Sequence record: PZ000615.1
From: a phage
Length of the DNA: 51,960 bases
Direction: 5' to 3' (one strand)
Made by a program: the position numbers and the translations under genes. Shown piece after piece: positions 451 through 17,493 of this stretch. Under the pieces are notes generated by a model, which did no database searches, was not told the DNA's origin, and worked only from the letters and a program-made list of their open reading frames with translations. How positions within the stretch are numbered: position 1 is the stretch's first letter; every line of letters begins with the position of its first letter.

Positions 451-2484
451 ATGACTATGAGTATTCAAAAGCAAATTGCCGCTCTTGATCCTGAGTACAT
501 GAAGAGGGTTAAGAGTCGATTCACGTTTGGCGATCTGGTTCCTTATGACTACCAGGTTGTCATGTACGGCGAGACGGCAAAGAGGATCGCCAATTACGAA
601 CATCCTTTCTACATCAAGGCGTCAGTGTCAGCAGGTAAGACCGTAGGTTTTGCCATGGTTGCTGCTCAATGCCAGGTCATGAATCTGCCTATGCTCATTC
701 TTGCTCGTCAGGCTGAGATTGTTCAGCAGGACAGCGAGGAACTTTCAAACTTTGGCGTGAAGAACTCCGTTTACTGCGCAGGGCTTAACACCAAGTCTGC
801 ATACTTCCCGATAGTAGTCGGATCTGAGGGTTCTGTTGCTAATGGCTTGGACAAGGCTCTTGCTGACTTTTATCCTATGGTTGTCGGCATTGATGAATGC
901 CATCAGGTAGACTGGGAGGACTTAGCTGAGGCCATTGAGAACAATGAATCAAGGGATCAGATGTCACGAGCGAAAGACAAGCCTTATCGCGTCAACGAGC
1001 ATCACGTGGCGGAGGATTACAAATTTCATGACTTCGATGTCGTCGAATATGGTACAGGGCGAGCACAGTACACAATCATCATCATGGAATTAATGCGTCG
1101 TTGCCGTGAGCGGTACGGTCGAGAGCTGAGAGTTTTCGGAATGACTGGATCAGAGTTTCGCGGCGTGGTTCCTATCCTGGTTGAAGATAAAAAGCATCGT
1201 GGTTTCTGGCGTGAGCAGGTCACTGACATCAACACATCTTACCTTGTTGATTTCGGCTCTGTTGTTCCGACAATATTTGGTGGCACTGACGGACTCAAGT
1301 ATGACCTTGATGAGTTCAAGGCATCCAGTCAGGATGGAACTGCTGATTTCGGCGCGAAAGAAATGAAAGCCATGGAGAAGAAAATTCATGAGTCAGCCAG
1401 CTTAACCAAACAGATCATGACCAAGGTTGCAGAAATGGCACAGACCAGGAACGCCGTACTGATAACGTGCGCGGGTCAGCGTCATTGTAAGGAGGCGGCT
1501 GAAGCGTTGCCACCTGGTAGCACTTACGCAATCATCACCGAAAAGACTAACGCCAAGAAGCGACAGCAGATCTTGGATGACGTAAGGGCGGGTAAAATAA
1601 AATACACCTTCCAGGTTATGGCTTTGACAACTGGCGTCAACGTTCCAAACTGGGACTTTAGCGTCATACTCCGCAAGATAGGGAGCTTGACACTCCTGAT
1701 CCAGTTGCTTGGGCGCGGGATGCGATTACTCAAAAAGCAACAGATTGAAATGGGTATGGTCAAAGAGGATCATCTCGTCTGGGACTTTGCCGGAACAATG
1801 GATGAACTCGGACAGCTTTACTTTGATCCGATTCTGGAGCAGTACCAATATCAGAGAAAAGGAGACCGCATCAAAGACCAGGAAAAATGCCCTATCTGTG
1901 GGACAATGAACAGTGGATTTGCTCGTCGCTGTATGCACCGAGACGAACACGGAAACCGTTGTGAGTATTTCTGGAAGTCTCAGATCTGCTCTGACATTGT
2001 CGACAAGCGAACCAACGAGATCATAAAGAAAGGTTGCGGAACCGAAAATGATGTGGTAGCAAGGGTATGCCGTTGCTGTGACGCTTCTCTAATCGATCCC
2101 AACGAGAAGCTATCCGGCAAGATGTACACGAAAAATGATTGGTGTGACGTTCTTGACTTCAAGGTCGGCATGACCAAGAGCCAAACCGGAATACTTTATC
2201 ATTACCGACTCAGGGACGCCGTAGGGGTTGAGTTTGACGCCGTGGAGAAGTTCTTCCCTGAGAGCGATAACAAGATCTGTAAAACGCTCTGGCGGTCAAA
2301 GGGGGTTACTCCTCACGTAGTCGGAAAGGACAACCGCAATTTACTCGGTCTGACAAAAAACGCTGTCAAGATTTTTAGCATGAAACACCTCATACTCTCA
2401 CCAATCCGAGTTACTCACCGGAAAAATGGGAAGGGTGAGGACATTATTAGCCGCAAAGACTTTGGAGGGGAAATTGATAACTGA
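451..2484 (+). CDS. SF2 (DEAD/DEAH-type) ATP-dependent helicase with C-terminal Cys-rich zinc-ribbon region
   Basis: Track ORF 403..2484; first ATG at 451; Walker A SAGKT, Walker B/DEAH-like GIDECHQ, C-terminal CPICG...RRC...RCCD cysteine clusters. Confidence 0.75.
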   Translation: MTMSIQKQIAALDPEYMKRVKSRFTFGDLVPYDYQVVMYGETAKRIANYEHPFYIKASVSAGKTVGFAMVAAQCQVMNLPMLILARQAEIVQQDSEELSNFGVKNSVYCAGLNTKSAYFPIVVGSEGSVANGLDKALADFYPMVVGIDECHQVDWEDLAEAIENNESRDQMSRAKDKPYRVNEHHVAEDYKFHDFDVVEYGTGRAQYTIIIMELMRRCRERYGRELRVFGMTGSEFRGVVPILVEDKKHRGFWREQVTDINTSYLVDFGSVVPTIFGGTDGLKYDLDEFKASSQDGTADFGAKEMKAMEKKIHESASLTKQIMTKVAEMAQTRNAVLITCAGQRHCKEAAEALPPGSTYAIITEKTNAKKRQQILDDVRAGKIKYTFQVMALTTGVNVPNWDFSVILRKIGSLTLLIQLLGRGMRLLKKQQIEMGMVKEDHLVWDFAGTMDELGQLYFDPILEQYQYQRKGDRIKDQEKCPICGTMNSGFARRCMHRDEHGNRCEYFWKSQICSDIVDKRTNEIIKKGCGTENDVVARVCRCCDASLIDPNEKLSGKMYTKNDWCDVLDFKVGMTKSQTGILYHYRLRDAVGVEFDAVEKFFPESDNKICKTLWRSKGVTPHVVGKDNRNLLGLTKNAVKIFSMKHLILSPIRVTHRKNGKGEDIISRKDFGGEIDN

Positions 2485-2902
2485 TAAAGGCGATTACCTT
2501 GAATATTACGAGCGCGATCCAAGCGACACCAGAAAGGAGGAGGCGCACCAAAACGATAGCGCCTCTTGGGTTAAGTATCACTATCCGGAAATAATTTTCT
2601 GGCACACGGTCAACGAGGGTAAGAAAACAATCACCCAGGCAGACCGAGATCAGAGAGCTGGATTATTGAAGGGGGTGAGCGATAACGTATTCCTGAATGG
2701 AGTTTGTTACAAATTCCCGTTTGGAGCCATTGAGCTTAAGCGCGTCAATAAGAGCGGAAAGGGGGCAGCGTCACCAGTCAGCGATGAACAGAAAGCATAT
2801 CTCAAGCGCGTTCGTTCTGCTGGAGGTTTCGCCGCCGTCGCTTACGGGTTCGAACAGTTCAAGCTGGCTTTCCTTGATATGATAGGGAAACAGCACGAAT
2901 AG
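2426..2902 (+). CDS. VRR-NUC-like (PD-(D/E)xK) nuclease
   Basis: Track ORF; motif region FWHTVNEG...GVSDNVFL...GAIELKRVNKSGKG...EQKAYL resembles VRR-NUC; start uncertain (59-nt overlap with helicase). Confidence 0.5.
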   Translation: MGRVRTLLAAKTLEGKLITDKGDYLEYYERDPSDTRKEEAHQNDSASWVKYHYPEIIFWHTVNEGKKTITQADRDQRAGLLKGVSDNVFLNGVCYKFPFGAIELKRVNKSGKGAASPVSDEQKAYLKRVRSAGGFAAVAYGFEQFKLAFLDMIGKQHE

Positions 2903-2933
2903 CTAAAACAGCCGGAAGGGAATCCGGTATTAT
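2889..2933 (+). promoter_or_regulatory. Promoter-like cassette (variant element)
   Basis: CAGCACGAATAGCTAAA variant; hairpin CCGGAAGGGAATCCGG in spacer; TATTAT 2928-2933; upstream of dam. Confidence 0.35.
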
Positions 2934-2960
2934 CATCTCAACTTAAACAGGAGATTGATT

Positions 2961-3695
2961 ATGAAAGACGTTGCAGACAAAGATACTCACGACGCTTTTG
3001 TCTCATTTGAGCAGATTGAGCGCGAAAACTTCATTACCAACGCGCTTGTTCCTGGGTGCGGTCATTATTCAGCAGTCAAGCCGGATACTTACTACCAGGT
3101 AACTGGCAACCGCTACGCCGGAAGCAAGACACCTGACATCGTTCGTGACCTTTGGGCTACAGATCCAGAAGTGATTGAGTTCATGGAGAAGCGTTTCGGC
3201 AAGTATGATCTTGACGCGGCGGCAAGCGAACAAAACGCGGTCTGTGAAAAGTTCTACGACGAAAAGACCGACTGCCTGAAACGCTGGTGGGGCAAGAACA
3301 AACACGTTTGGCTTAACCCTCCGTACTCACATCCGGACGTCTTTGTCAAAAAGGCAATTGAGCAGATGGAGCATGGAAACCAGATTGACATGCTGCTGCC
3401 TGGTGACAACTCAACCGCATGGTTTGCCGAAGCGCGTCGGAATGCTGCTGAGATTATCTGGATCGAGGGAGATATTGAAACCGACATCGACGGAACTGAG
3501 TACGCCCGAACCGGACGACTTTCTTTCATCTCGGCTCTCACCGGAAAGCCAGTTGACGGAAACAACAAAGGCTCTGTGATCTTTATCATGCGAGAGCTGA
3601 AAGAAGGTGAGAAACAGAAAACTCACTACATCCCAATTACTGAAATTTGCCCAGGCGTGAGCCGCAAGCGTGCTAAAAAACGGAGCGTAAAATAA
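2961..3695 (+). CDS. dam: DNA N6-adenine methyltransferase (phage Dam type)
   Basis: Track ORF 2955..3695 starts at TTG; ATG at 2961 preceded by CAGGAG; catalytic motif WLNPPYSH (NPPY). Confidence 0.8.
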   Translation: MKDVADKDTHDAFVSFEQIERENFITNALVPGCGHYSAVKPDTYYQVTGNRYAGSKTPDIVRDLWATDPEVIEFMEKRFGKYDLDAAASEQNAVCEKFYDEKTDCLKRWWGKNKHVWLNPPYSHPDVFVKKAIEQMEHGNQIDMLLPGDNSTAWFAEARRNAAEIIWIEGDIETDIDGTEYARTGRLSFISALTGKPVDGNNKGSVIFIMRELKEGEKQKTHYIPITEICPGVSRKRAKKRSVK

Positions 3696-3928
3696 TGAGT
3701 AACTTCAACATTAAATACCTTACAAAGTCTGAAAAGTGGGCTTTATATCGCGCTCTGGTTGTTCTGGTTCTTATTGAGTCTGGATATAACAAAGACCATT
3801 TCGAGCTTGCTGATTCTCTTGATATGTCATTTGAGGAGATCGAAAGCATCCCTTATGACCAGTGGAAAGCCTTGATCATGAAAGACCTGCACGAGATGAT
3901 CGCAGATTGTCCGGAGGACTTTGGCTAA
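3695..3928 (+). CDS. Hypothetical protein
   Basis: Track ORF; TAATG start/stop overlap with dam. Confidence 0.5.
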   Translation: MSNFNIKYLTKSEKWALYRALVVLVLIESGYNKDHFELADSLDMSFEEIESIPYDQWKALIMKDLHEMIADCPEDFG

Positions 3929-4170
3929 TGGATATTCGCGAGGGTAGAGCGGCAGTATGGGAGCACGCAAAGGAATGCGGGATTGATGAAGATATAGCAC
4001 GAATTGCTAAACATTTCGACATCAAAGAGATTAATATCTTCACTCCTGGCGACGGCGGCAAGCTTACATATTTAAACGAACGCCCTCGCAAATTTCACAA
4101 GATAGCGGTTGCAGCGAAATCAGAAAAAACGCTTGACCAATACCTTAAAGAGGCAAGAGGCAAGAAATGA
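3928..4170 (+). CDS. Hypothetical protein (contains an internal copy of the promoter element)
   Basis: ATG at 3928 overlapping upstream stop (TAATG); track ORF 3862..4170 has an upstream non-ATG extension. Confidence 0.4.
   Translation: MDIREGRAAVWEHAKECGIDEDIARIAKHFDIKEINIFTPGDGGKLTYLNERPRKFHKIAVAAKSEKTLDQYLKEARGKK
3993..4037 (+). promoter_or_regulatory. Promoter-like cassette located inside a coding region
   Basis: TATAGCACGAATTGCTAAA then TAATAT at 4032-4037 with the same 22-nt spacing; inside ORF 3928..4170. Confidence 0.3.
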
Positions 4171-4421
4171 ATTTACCAGGCTTGAACTTTGACGAAACAG
4201 TTTACTCCCTTACGTGGAGAGGCAATATCAAGTTCCGTGAGATTCCATTCTCTGACTGGTTGCCTCCCGATCACAAGGATGTCATTTGTTACGGAAACGG
4301 TCAGGTATTTGAGGCTTATTTTTCTCCTCTATCTGGTTTCATGGTTCCGTCAGAAAACTCCACGGCTCATTGTGCTTTTGAGCCATGCGAGCTTGATTAC
4401 TGGTTGAAAGAGGTGGAGTAA
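4167..4421 (+). CDS. Hypothetical protein
   Basis: Track ORF; ATGA overlap with upstream gene. Confidence 0.5.
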   Translation: MNLPGLNFDETVYSLTWRGNIKFREIPFSDWLPPDHKDVICYGNGQVFEAYFSPLSGFMVPSENSTAHCAFEPCELDYWLKEVE

Positions 4422-14386: not shown

Positions 14387-14650
14387 TCAGTCCTCTACTG
14401 TGAATTTGATCGGCTCTTTGCCGTCTGCTTTACGCTGCTTGTTAACCAGTGATTCGAACTTACTCATGCACTCCTTCAGATCTGTAAAGGTTGACGCCGT
14501 ACCCATAACCCGATACGACTCAACGTTTTTGCCGCGAACATAGTTGATAACCTTTTTGCAGATCTTGAACTTGTCACCCTTTGCGCTTGACTCCTGAAAC
14601 ACTGCGATTGTGGTTGAGCCATGCTTGAATGCTTTAGTGATGAATGCCAT
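14387..14650 (-). CDS. Hypothetical protein (first gene of leftward early operon)
   Basis: Track ORF; AGGAGG SD; preceded by promoter element copy. Confidence 0.5.
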   Translation of the reverse strand: MAFITKAFKHGSTTIAVFQESSAKGDKFKICKKVINYVRGKNVESYRVMGTASTFTDLKECMSKFESLVNKQRKADGKEPIKFTVED

Positions 14651-14674
14651 GAGAGCCTCCTGTTTCGATGAGAT

Positions 14675-14721
14675 GATTATGACCGATTCGAGACTGATTG
14701 GTTTAGCAAAAAGTGCTATTT
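14675..14721 (-). promoter_or_regulatory. Promoter-like cassette (minus orientation), first of leftward operon
   Basis: Minus strand AATAGCACTTTTTGCTAAA; CATAAT-like hexamer ~23 nt downstream; then CATCGAAACAGGAGG-ATG. Confidence 0.4.
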
Positions 14722-14902
14722 CTTGCAGATTGTCATAATGACTATATTGTTGCTGTATTGTTCATGATCGCATAACGCCTTTGCTCATATAGCAATAGTG
14801 ATTGTTGCTGTGATAGCAAATGTGTGCGCTCATTATTGCTTGATATGCATTAAGTTGAGAGGGGTAGAGATGGTGATTCGCTGTTCGCCTGATGACTGTT
14901 GG

Positions 14903-15445
14903 AAATTTCACGGAGGATTTGGGGAGGATTACGGAGGATTTCTCGGACTCAATTAGACGAACCTTTCAGAGCTACAGCTCATCTTTCTCCATCCCTGACT
15001 TGTCTGATATGCTACGGAGGGTTGCGGAGGATTACGGAGGATTTGCAATTCGGCTCTAGCCCTTGGTGCGCGTGGCTTGCGAGAGATTTACGCCGGAAAA
15101 TGTCGATTTCTCTATGGGGGCTGGTATAGATATACATAGAGAATGATGAGAAAGTGATGTGTCCATACGCTCACAGAAAAAATCCGATAACCCAATAATC
15201 AACATAATCCTCCGTAAACTATGAAACGATACCAATATACCAATAGAGAGATATAGTAATAATATATATAAAAACCCTTATATTACATATATATATAGTA
15301 TTATTATATACTATCTATACTGATTAGCTTGGTCATAAAATGAGCTGATTTTACGGAGGATGGTTCCGGCGCAATCCTCCGCGATTTCGATAAGTGTATG
15401 ATTTGCAAGGCTGCATTTACGGAGGGTATTTTCCGCAAAACACGT
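14903..15445. repeat. Iteron/AT-rich non-coding region A (candidate origin or regulatory hub)
   Basis: Tandem CGGAGGATT-like 10-11-bp repeats at 14911-14940 and 15015-15043, inverted/extra copies at 15206-15214, 15351-15362, 15371-15384, 15415-15428; AT-rich core 15225-15330; blocks shared with region B. Confidence 0.6.
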
Positions 15446-15458
15446 AAAAACAACCCAA

Positions 15459-15503
15459 AATAGCACTTTTTGCTAAAACCGCACCCCTGGCTTTTGCTAT
15501 TAT
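15459..15503 (+). promoter_or_regulatory. Promoter-like cassette, first of rightward array
   Basis: AATAGCACTTTTTGCTAAA 15459-15477; TATTAT 15498-15503; then CAACGAAACGAAAGG. Confidence 0.4.
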
Positions 15504-15539
15504 TATCTCAACGAAACGAAAGGCACAAAGGAAAACGTC

Positions 15540-15830
15540 ATGAAACTGGTACGCGAATCTATCAAGCTTGGCACTGAGTACAACGGCAAATGGTGGTTCA
15601 CTATCGACGGCAACGACGCCGATGAGCTGGAAGCTGCTCAAGATCGCCTTTCATCAATGGAGACTGGATCTCACACTGTTAAGGCTGACGGCTCACTGAA
15701 AGCCGAGAGATGGAATGACTACTGTGACGGATGCCCTTGTTATGAAGATGGTCACTCTGCTGGATACTGGATTCCTGTCGACATGGTTCCAGCATTCAAG
15801 GCAGCATGGAAGATTGCAAAGAAAGCCTAA
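15540..15830 (+). CDS. Hypothetical protein (first gene of rightward early array)
   Basis: Track ORF; stop TAA abuts promoter element. Confidence 0.5.
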   Translation: MKLVRESIKLGTEYNGKWWFTIDGNDADELEAAQDRLSSMETGSHTVKADGSLKAERWNDYCDGCPCYEDGHSAGYWIPVDMVPAFKAAWKIAKKA

Positions 15831-15873
15831 TAGCACGAATTGCTAAACATGAGCCGGAGCAATCCGGCATAAT
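15829..15873 (+). promoter_or_regulatory. Promoter-like cassette
   Basis: AATAGCACGAATTGCTAAA; hairpin CCGGAGCAATCCGG; CATAAT 15868-15873. Confidence 0.4.
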
Positions 15874-15913
15874 AGCCCCATCGAAACGAAACAGTAGCTA
15901 CAAGGAAAAGAAA

Positions 15914-16069
15914 ATGGTACAGTTCAACATCATCGATACTGGCAACAAGGCACTCCTCGGGTTCTTCCGGTTCAAGTGTACTGGTGACGGTTTCACAGGT
16001 TACGGCAACATCGAGCTCGACGCATACCAGGAATGGGCTGAGGCTCGCTACATTGGAGATAAAGACTGA
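15914..16069 (+). CDS. Small hypothetical protein (51 aa)
   Basis: ATG at 15914 with AAGGAAAAG SD; track ORF 15806..16069 has an upstream extension that reads through the promoter element. Confidence 0.35.
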   Translation: MVQFNIIDTGNKALLGFFRFKCTGDGFTGYGNIELDAYQEWAEARYIGDKD

Positions 16070-16212
16070 TGATACATATCGGATGGTTGGTAAACGGGAC
16101 GTTCTACCCTGCTAGCGAGGCTAAGCGGGTAGACATGATCAGAGAGTTCAGGGGCGACAAGGTCGACATCGTCGAGGTTTATGCGGAGCGTTATCCATGC
16201 GTAAAATACTGA
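16069..16212 (+). CDS. Small hypothetical protein (47 aa), uncertain
   Basis: ATG overlapping upstream stop, GGAGA SD; overlaps start of next gene. Confidence 0.25.
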   Translation: MIHIGWLVNGTFYPASEAKRVDMIREFRGDKVDIVEVYAERYPCVKY

Positions 16213-16712
16213 TGGTGGCCTCATACGTGGGGCTGTTCACCCTGGCAAACGTGAACGTCGCTATGTTCGGAGTGTGGGTTACACCGTTCAACGCGCTATT
16301 CATTATTGCTGCTGATATGGTGATACGCGACAGAATCCAGTATGACGGCGGAGCGCTTGTTGCAATATTCGCCTCACTGCTTGCTGGTTCTGCAACAATA
16401 GCCATAGTTCCGGATGCAGGTCGAATAGCCATAGCGTCAAGCTTGTCCGTTGTCCTTGCTGGCCTTGCCTCTGCTGTTGCATTTAGGTTGAGGCGTGGGG
16501 ATTTCTACAGAAAGTCATATCAGGCAAATGTGATCGCTGCTGCTGTTGACTCAATCGCTTTCCCTGTGATAGCGTTCGGCTCGGTCATGATGTATGTGAC
16601 ACTCGCGCAGTTTGCAGCCAAAGTCATTGGCGCTTCTGTCATACTCTACTTAATGAAAAGGTGTTTCAATAATGACAGTTCACTTTCACGGCTCTCCAAT
16701 AACGGGCGGTAA
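16197..16712 (+). CDS. YhhQ/VUT-family-like integral membrane protein (putative queuosine-precursor transporter)
   Basis: Multi-pass hydrophobic protein; segments FNALFIIAADMVIRDRI, AFRLRRGDFYRKSYQANVIAAAVDSIAFPVIAF and QFAAKVIGASVILYLM align by eye with recalled E. coli YhhQ; alternative start 16212. Confidence 0.55.
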   Translation: MRKILMVASYVGLFTLANVNVAMFGVWVTPFNALFIIAADMVIRDRIQYDGGALVAIFASLLAGSATIAIVPDAGRIAIASSLSVVLAGLASAVAFRLRRGDFYRKSYQANVIAAAVDSIAFPVIAFGSVMMYVTLAQFAAKVIGASVILYLMKRCFNNDSSLSRLSNNGR

Positions 16713-16719
16713 GGGTGAT

Positions 16720-17493
16720 ATGATGGCTCGCGTTGCATATCGCGGCGCGGGTGCATTCGTATCTTACGCTCACCCAAAGCAGATCAACATGACCCTTGAG
16801 GTTGCTGACGCTGTATGCATAGACAACGGCGCATTCTCAAAGAAGAATACCGGACGCGAGACGGATTGGAACGGGTTTTACAACGACTTTCTCCCAAGGT
16901 TTATCGACCATCCGAAACTCAGATTCTTTGTTATTCCGGATGACATAAGCGGAGACGACCAGGAGAACGACAGGCTTATCCGTGAGCTACCAGCGCACCT
17001 TAAACACAAAGGCGCTCCGGTATGGCACTTGCACGAGAGCATAGATCGCCTTGTTCACCTGGCTAACGAGTGGGAGTATGTATGTCTTGGCTCATCAGGA
17101 GAATACTACTCAATCCGATCCCCTAAGTGGCGAGCAAGGATGGATGAGGCATTCAACGCTCTGATCTCTCGCGGGTATTCTGCTAAGCTTCACGGCCTGA
17201 GGATGCTGGATGGTCGAGTTCTTGGCAATTATCCACTTGACCAGGCCGACTCAACCAATATCGCCATTAATGCGCCAAAGTGGTTATGCAAGCACGTGCA
17301 GATGACTATAGAGGCTTGCCGGATGCAGACGCATTTCAGTAAGTGGATTGACACAACAGATCCGAAGGTAGCTCTTGATAACCTGATCTCTGCCGGAGGA
17401 ACTAAAGAGCAAATGCTATCTCAGAGGTGCGCAATCCTGAAATCGTGCATTGAGTCAGTCAAACCTCCGCATAAGTCTGACTGGTTAAAATAG
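16720..17493 (+). CDS. TGT-fold protein, putative DpdA-like DNA transglycosylase (tentative)
   Basis: Track ORF 16672..17493; probable ATG 16720 after AGGGTGA; CIDNGAF resembles TGT DSGGFQ catalytic-Asp motif, YVCLGSSGEY resembles TGT YAVGGLAVGE; no zinc CxCxxC..H motif; adjacent to YhhQ-like gene. Confidence 0.4.
   Translation: MMARVAYRGAGAFVSYAHPKQINMTLEVADAVCIDNGAFSKKNTGRETDWNGFYNDFLPRFIDHPKLRFFVIPDDISGDDQENDRLIRELPAHLKHKGAPVWHLHESIDRLVHLANEWEYVCLGSSGEYYSIRSPKWRARMDEAFNALISRGYSAKLHGLRMLDGRVLGNYPLDQADSTNIAINAPKWLCKHVQMTIEACRMQTHFSKWIDTTDPKVALDNLISAGGTKEQMLSQRCAILKSCIESVKPPHKSDWLK

Follow-up and report, generated by a model that had tools for sequence, protein, structure and literature searches.

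Modification of DNA with 7-deazaguanines is a recognised counter-defence of phages, within which the large class of "DpdA-only" phages is poorly understood. Among the described systems, Escherichia phage CAjan (Seuratvirus) carries a DpdA (gp35) and a transporter (gp41) together with FolE, QueD, QueE and QueC, has about 32% of its G replaced by dPreQ0, and loses dPreQ0 from its DNA altogether when dpdA is deleted. Here we describe two overlapping open reading frames (ORFs), henceforth referred to as ORF A and ORF B, found in the sequence record PZ000615.1. The window, i.e. the whole stretch of 51,960 nucleotides that was analysed, is the complete genome of a T1-like siphovirus, an Enterobacter phage. 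It seems probable to us that the two genes, coupled in translation, form a salvage module serving the modification of DNA with 7-deazaguanines, with ORF A coding for a short membrane protein of the VUT/YhhQ family and ORF B for a compact DpdA-type enzyme. Both family assignments can be made with high confidence from homology alone. The two proteins have both of their Phage Orthologous Groups (PHROGs 887 and 4899) in common with CAjan, and in both phages the transporter is of a short form (~160–170 amino acids) and the DpdA has no zinc motif. Unlike CAjan, the phage described here has no biosynthesis genes, and its two genes directly overlap.

Phages with DpdA as the only gene of this kind were described before, as a group of 76 (Hutinet et al. 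2019). The same work already predicted the precursor-salvage arrangement for phages, and remarked on "no correlation" of phage-borne YhhQ homologues with any of the phage groups. Salvage as such is no novelty, and the present phage adds an example and not a new kind of system. Of the DpdA-only phages (Hutinet group 3), ORF B is 45% identical to the protein of Pantoea phage MED16 (45–49% over the range MED16 and Salmonella phages SEN1 and SW9) and 31.6% identical to that of Salmonella phage 7-11. These four phages have no preQ0 pathway and are therefore dependent on host precursor, as the present one would be. MED16 and 7-11 differ from it in that no VUT homologue appeared for them in the tblastn list and that their product is dADG at low level, not dPreQ0; in MED16, with dADG in its DNA, DpdA is the sole deazaguanine gene.

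Two further systems are of bacterial origin. The bacterial DpdA of S. Montevideo (7ui4) has 413 amino acids, four insertions and a CxCx2Cx22H zinc site, and needs the ATPase DpdB, whereas ORF B has 273 amino acids, no zinc motif, no DndB/ParB-like partner and no match to DpdA in PADLOC. Cap10 of type IV CBASS (9ntn) binds the N-terminus of a CD-NTase carrying NDG and needs Cap9; in contrast, the genome studied here has no such partner genes, and ORF B shows no match to Cap10 at the sequence level. The genome itself has ~85% nucleotide identity to Enterobacter phages Phc and Ec_L1 (Drexlerviridae, Eclunavirus). In Phc both genes are annotated as "hypothetical", and a literature search found no paper on DpdA in Drexlerviridae.

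ORF B, a predicted DpdA-type transglycosylase

ORF B matched PHROG 887, "queuine tRNA-ribosyltransferase", over residues 1–272 (E 9.6e-71), a group that takes in the DpdA of CAjan as well (8.2e-96). The relationship between the two proteins was also recovered with a hidden Markov model (HMM) of the ORF B family (1.2e-8), with phmmer (9.4e-5) and with hhalign (92.9% probability). In the last of these, four motifs were aligned: IDNGAFS of ORF B with LDSGAFS of CAjan DpdA, PVWHLHE with PCFHFGE, GSSGE with GGMVG, and QADST with SCDSS. The initial annotation had pointed to the TGT superfamily (TGT, tRNA-guanine transglycosylase), and to DpdA within it, on the basis of two segments that are indeed present, CIDNGAF at residues 49–55 and YVCLGSSGE at residues 136–144 (numbered from the start at 16672, see below). 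The PHROG and CAjan matches and the fold agree with that proposal.

Among 58 homologues of ORF B, ten residues do not vary (D51, N52, D90, G140, S142, G143, H174, D180, D193 and S194), and F55 hardly does. In the alignment with CAjan DpdA, D51/F55 are matched by LDSGAF and D193 by CDSS, and the D-x-x-x-F spacing is that of Asp95 and Phe99 in the S. Montevideo enzyme, where Asp95 acts as general acid/base and Asp256 as nucleophile, and base recognition falls to a third Asp. D90 would be the equivalent of the middle aspartate, the hhalign register being off by 3 at this point. Judged by its sequence, ORF B carries the active-site aspartates and the stacking phenylalanine of a DpdA-type enzyme.

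The fold of ORF B is that of a TGT-superfamily TIM barrel, not an unrelated one. In the fold comparison, the DNA preQ0 insertase DpdA (7ui4) came second (Z 13.9), after Cap10 (15.2) and ahead of ArcTGT (13.7), with TGT sixth (12.8) and QTRT2 seventh (12.4). Against viral predicted structures there were 27 matches at E<=1e-3, and all the named ones were phage queuine tRNA-ribosyltransferases. Cap10 heads the list, and ORF B could in principle act as Cap10 does, on protein-linked or other non-DNA 7-deazaguanine, for example as an anti-CBASS factor directed at deazaguanylated CD-NTases. We find this scarcely credible. The small difference in Z may just reflect the shorter Cap10 chain, and at the sequence level a relationship of ORF B is detectable with CAjan DpdA and with no PDB chain, Cap10 included. 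The Pfam scan of the genome gave no Cap9/QueC-like (PF06508), CD-NTase or nucleotidyltransferase gene, and no PADLOC model matched at E<=1. Besides, the obligate partner of ORF B is a putative free-base transporter, and the DNA of its relative MED16 is modified.

Another possibility is that ORF B is a tRNA-guanine transglycosylase which, together with the transporter, remodels the queuosine of host or phage tRNA and in this way tunes translation. The name attached to PHROG 887 and to many GenBank records would suit such a role, as would membership of the TGT superfamily by fold. It is nevertheless highly improbable, given that PHROG 887 includes CAjan DpdA, a DNA-acting enzyme, and that ORF B has no Pfam TGT (PF01702) match, no zinc subdomain and a length of 273 amino acids, against 375 in E. 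coli Tgt. The comparison of the ORF B family with the single E. coli Tgt sequence by hhalign was null (0.2%), and an Enterobacteriaceae host already has a Tgt of its own. A DNA-directed, DpdA-type activity is the prediction that we retain for ORF B.

The start of the gene had initially been placed at 16720, which is wrong. ORF B almost certainly begins at ATG 16672 and has 273 amino acids, because the first 16 residues thus gained contain invariant positions (H4, H6, G7, P9 and G12 across the 58 homologues). Alignments to PHROG 887 and by tblastn reach back to residue 1–3, AAAGGTG lies 8 nucleotides upstream of this ATG, and the same ORF of 822 nucleotides is annotated in phage Phc. Two H-x-H pairs, H4/H6 in strand 1 and H119/H121 in a later strand, are invariant in 58 of 58 homologues. 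Only H119 among these residues has a counterpart in CAjan DpdA, and the pairs may form a site for metal or substrate that is peculiar to this subfamily.

ORF A and the source of the precursor

ORF A matched PHROG 4899 (E 1.9e-21), the group that also holds CAjan gp41, a "putative preQ0 transporter". The family to which it belongs was aligned by hhalign with CAjan gp41 (96.8%, E 2.2e-10) and with E. coli YhhQ (77.7%, E 1.9e-5, 117 columns), and the corresponding family HMM retrieved the same two proteins (4.7e-14 and 1.5e-5, respectively). Pfam Vut_1 (PF02592) was matched by 18 of the 25 members of the family alignment (best 4.9e-14), and 15 homologues of ORF A have a precomputed PF02592 assignment. 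An AlphaFold2 model shows six long helices (pLDDT 89), and hydropathy reaches a peak of 2.3 in a 19-residue window. By these sequence-based measures ORF A is a membrane protein with six helices that belongs to the VUT/YhhQ family, precursor transport being its putative function. A GGAG is found 8 nucleotides upstream of its ATG.

The multi-pass membrane protein first described at 16197..16712 is borne out in its coordinates, and its gene lies on the + strand. Its proposed alignment with E. coli YhhQ is weak when the two sequences are compared directly (BLASTP gave a marginal E of 0.025) and holds at the profile level, in the hhalign and family HMM results given above. The two proteins share the Pfam family (at family level), the nature of a multi-helix membrane protein and the motifs D..R, IA.AS and D(S/T)..F, YhhQ being the longer, with 221 amino acids compared with 171.

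A Pfam scan of the 73 other ORFs, in one part of which the best 25 of 27 matching families were inspected, found no GTP cyclohydrolase I (folE), PTPS/QueD, radical-SAM QueE, QueC or QueF, and no DpdB (DndB/ParB-like) partner for ORF B. Searches by phmmer with the FolE, QueD, QueC and QueE proteins of CAjan against all six-frame ORFs of at least 40 amino acids gave nothing at E<=1. Both results agree with the initial annotation, which had noted no queC, queD, queE or folE. Without these four genes, the phage can obtain the base only through the queuosine pathway of its host and/or by import. With a VUT/YhhQ protein, a DpdA-type protein and no preQ0 genes, salvage of a precursor from host or medium is the only route available, and import of host-made precursor for use in the phage's own DNA, as originally suggested, is the best current reading, albeit one anticipated in 2019.

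Linkage of the two genes and distribution of the cassette

In a blastn comparison with Ec_L1, homology ends at 15881 and restarts at 17490, where ORF B has its last sense codon. The intervening part is replaced in Ec_L1 by small unrelated ORFs amounting to ~0.8 kb, while Phc is collinear throughout. Being found in Phc and missing in Ec_L1, the ORF A–ORF B pair is therefore an accessory cassette.

An ORF A-like protein is encoded in 21 records of GenBank phages, and in 14 of them a homologue of ORF B is directly adjacent. These are Phc, Opt-719, Opt-79, Phleasolo, Sadiya, LHE71, Lg3, RCIP0319, Flyfo Tbat1_6 (two records), PEAT2 (two records), ECO111 5-P and Acinetobacter phage AB3P2 (for Opt-79 and Phleasolo, adjacency was taken from their near-identity to Opt-719). 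Relatives of ORF A are far more numerous in IMG/VR, where more than 518 contigs encode them. From these we examined the 80 loci most similar to ORF A, and 78 had an ORF B-family gene beside the VUT gene on the same strand; the other two loci end at a contig edge. DpdA precedes VUT, with a short overlap, in ~72 of the 78 loci, and the opposite order, as in this phage, is that of the enterobacterial phages and of six IMG/VR loci. The pair has been assembled or inverted more than once. Since the genes have stayed adjacent, in either order, in lineages far apart, a functional link between them is strongly supported. Genes for CAjan-like FolE, QueD, QueC and QueE were found within 4 kb in none of the 80 loci, in a test of limited sensitivity. 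What is modestly new here is this near-obligatory coupling of a short VUT subfamily with a compact DpdA subfamily. It sharpens the "no correlation" remark of 2019 and suggests that precursor supply is the limiting step.

The same short VUT was also seen in other surroundings. The mEp021 locus at 1991–4259, found in MagusPhagus too, consists of a Dam methyltransferase, a DUF6378 protein, a VUT protein (PHROG 4899) and a DNA methyltransferase (PHROG 757), with overlapping neighbours. In mEp021-like phages the VUT gene is followed by a gene for a 252-amino-acid protein, which was considered as a cryptic DpdA and rejected (hhalign 0.1%), belonging as it does to PHROG 757, DNA methyltransferase. 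In a bacterial dpd cluster on the Logan contig ERR11637135_230198 (326–5548), a short VUT gene lies between dpdB (DndB family) and dpdD, beside a DpdA with the zinc motif. Here a Dpd system on a chromosome has a precursor transporter of its own.

Proposed salvage mechanism and layout of the locus

In the mechanism that we propose, ORF A would insert in the inner membrane as a six-helix carrier of the VUT/YhhQ type and raise the amount of free 7-deazaguanine inside the cell; this base (preQ0, or one closely related to it, e.g. preQ1, ADG or CDG) would come ultimately from the host or the environment. ORF B, as a compact DpdA1-like TIM-barrel transglycosylase, would flip particular guanines out of double-stranded phage DNA after replication and exchange the base by way of a covalent intermediate between Asp193 and deoxyribose; the 7-deazaguanine would then displace the enzyme, and the modified base would stay in the DNA. 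The homology of both proteins, the fold, the conserved catalytic residues, the absence of biosynthesis genes and the near-obligatory adjacency were established in the analysis; the identity of the substrate, DNA as the target, the level of modification and its biological benefit are inferred. The product that we would expect, by analogy with the DpdA-only relatives, is a sparse, motif-specific modification, possibly dADG, and not bulk replacement.

Several points weigh against this proposal. The available measurements of modification come from relatives only, none of which has the layout of DpdA and VUT alone. In CAjan, deletion of the yhhQ homologue left modification unaffected, the gene being dispensable there because CAjan makes its own preQ0, and seven of the 21 GenBank records, all from mEp021-like phages, have VUT without DpdA. 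At the level of the single proteins, ORF A alone scored 18.7 bits against Pfam Vut_1 (E 0.0024), where the cut-off is 27.2. Neither the single ORF B sequence nor its 58-sequence profile found a match in Pfam, NCBIfam, PADLOC (E<=1 in these three) or the sequences of the PDB, and Foldseek of ORF B against the PDB returned generic TIM barrels only. The zinc site CxCxxC...H, known from TGT and bacterial DpdA, is absent from ORF B and from all of its family (0 of 58 members), and is present in E. coli Tgt and in the bacterial DpdA-like protein of the Logan contig. The functional DpdA of CAjan is also without this site, and ORF B is therefore, as far as sequence can tell, a compact phage-type DpdA, neither a tRNA TGT nor a bacterial DpdA, with a predicted activity.

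The levels of modification in the DpdA-only phages belong with the same objections. In 7-11 there are 50 dADG per 10^6 nucleotides (0.02% of G) and in MED16 354 per 10^6 (0.13% of G), and MED16 DNA is still cut by most of the G-containing restriction enzymes tested. The anti-restriction benefit put forward at first is thus doubtful. On these figures, the genes might well be what their names say and the modification too sparse to protect, the cassette being kept for some other reason, such as the marking of DNA for packaging or replication, the evasion of one specific defence, or an effect of the membrane protein, e.g. superinfection exclusion. That the cassette is dispensable within the genus, as Ec_L1 has none, and that the phage also has a Dam-family methyltransferase would both fit. 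We consider this a serious if unlikely alternative, given that the strict coupling of DpdA and VUT, seen across hundreds of viral contigs, is an argument that the enzyme is limited by its precursor supply, on which selection acts.

A further reading, rather improbable in our view, would make the pair a self-sufficient mobile module in which both the choice of the inserted base and its amount are determined by the transporter and not by the host pathway. Were it true, ORF A might import ADG, CDG or preQ1 from lysed neighbour cells, which would explain the presence of dADG in phages that have no preQ0-modifying enzyme, and phages with DpdA and VUT would be modified far more than the VUT-less 7-11 and MED16. 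Returning to the salvage module that we favour, this phage, Phc and the coliphages Opt-719, Lg3 and LHE71 offer a culturable enterobacterial system for the cassette, and the coupling means that a direct test of the role of precursor supply is possible in a phage of enterobacteria. For annotation, the two "hypothetical" genes of Phc can now be named.

The genome codes for a terminase, portal, major capsid and tape measure proteins, a GpJ-like tip, ERF, a helicase, a DUF3987 primase, a lysozyme and Dam. The cassette comprises four closely packed ORFs on the + strand, ~650 nucleotides inside a rightward block of small ORFs (Table 1).

Table 1. Position of the cassette genes and of the Dam-family gene in the window
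Feature	Coordinates	Strand	Description
Small ORF	15914..16069	+	51 amino acids, counted from M37 of ORF 15806..16069
Small ORF	16069..16212	+	47 amino acids; ATGA overlap with the preceding ORF; 16-nucleotide overlap with ORF A
ORF A	16197..16712	+	171 amino acids; VUT/COG1738 (YhhQ-family), putative importer of 7-deazaguanine precursor
ORF B	16672..17493	+	273 amino acids; predicted compact DpdA-type DNA-guanine transglycosylase without Zn site; start 41 nucleotides within ORF A
Accessory cassette	15881..17490		Limits of blastn homology to Eclunavirus Ec_L1
Dam-family N6-adenine methyltransferase	2955..3695	+	Pfam PF05869, E 2.6e-60; phmmer 6e-30 to mEp021 Dam

Between the leftward genes, which end at 14650, and the rightward block of the cassette there are ~890 nucleotides (14650–15540) without a convincing ORF, probably a divergent early regulatory region. 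A scan for promoter and terminator consensus sites around the cassette was uninformative, giving fewer sites than shuffled sequence. The Dam-family gene makes it probable that the phage also methylates adenine, like MED16.

The two small ORFs upstream of ORF A had no match in a PHROG search. The 51-amino-acid product has 97.5% amino acid identity to its counterpart in Phc and 48% to that in Tunavirus Lg3; for the 47-amino-acid product, unannotated in Phc, the values are 95.7% and 44.7%, with the same position kept. In Lg3 the homologues of both sit directly upstream of the VUT–DpdA pair, and the two could be extra parts of the cassette module.

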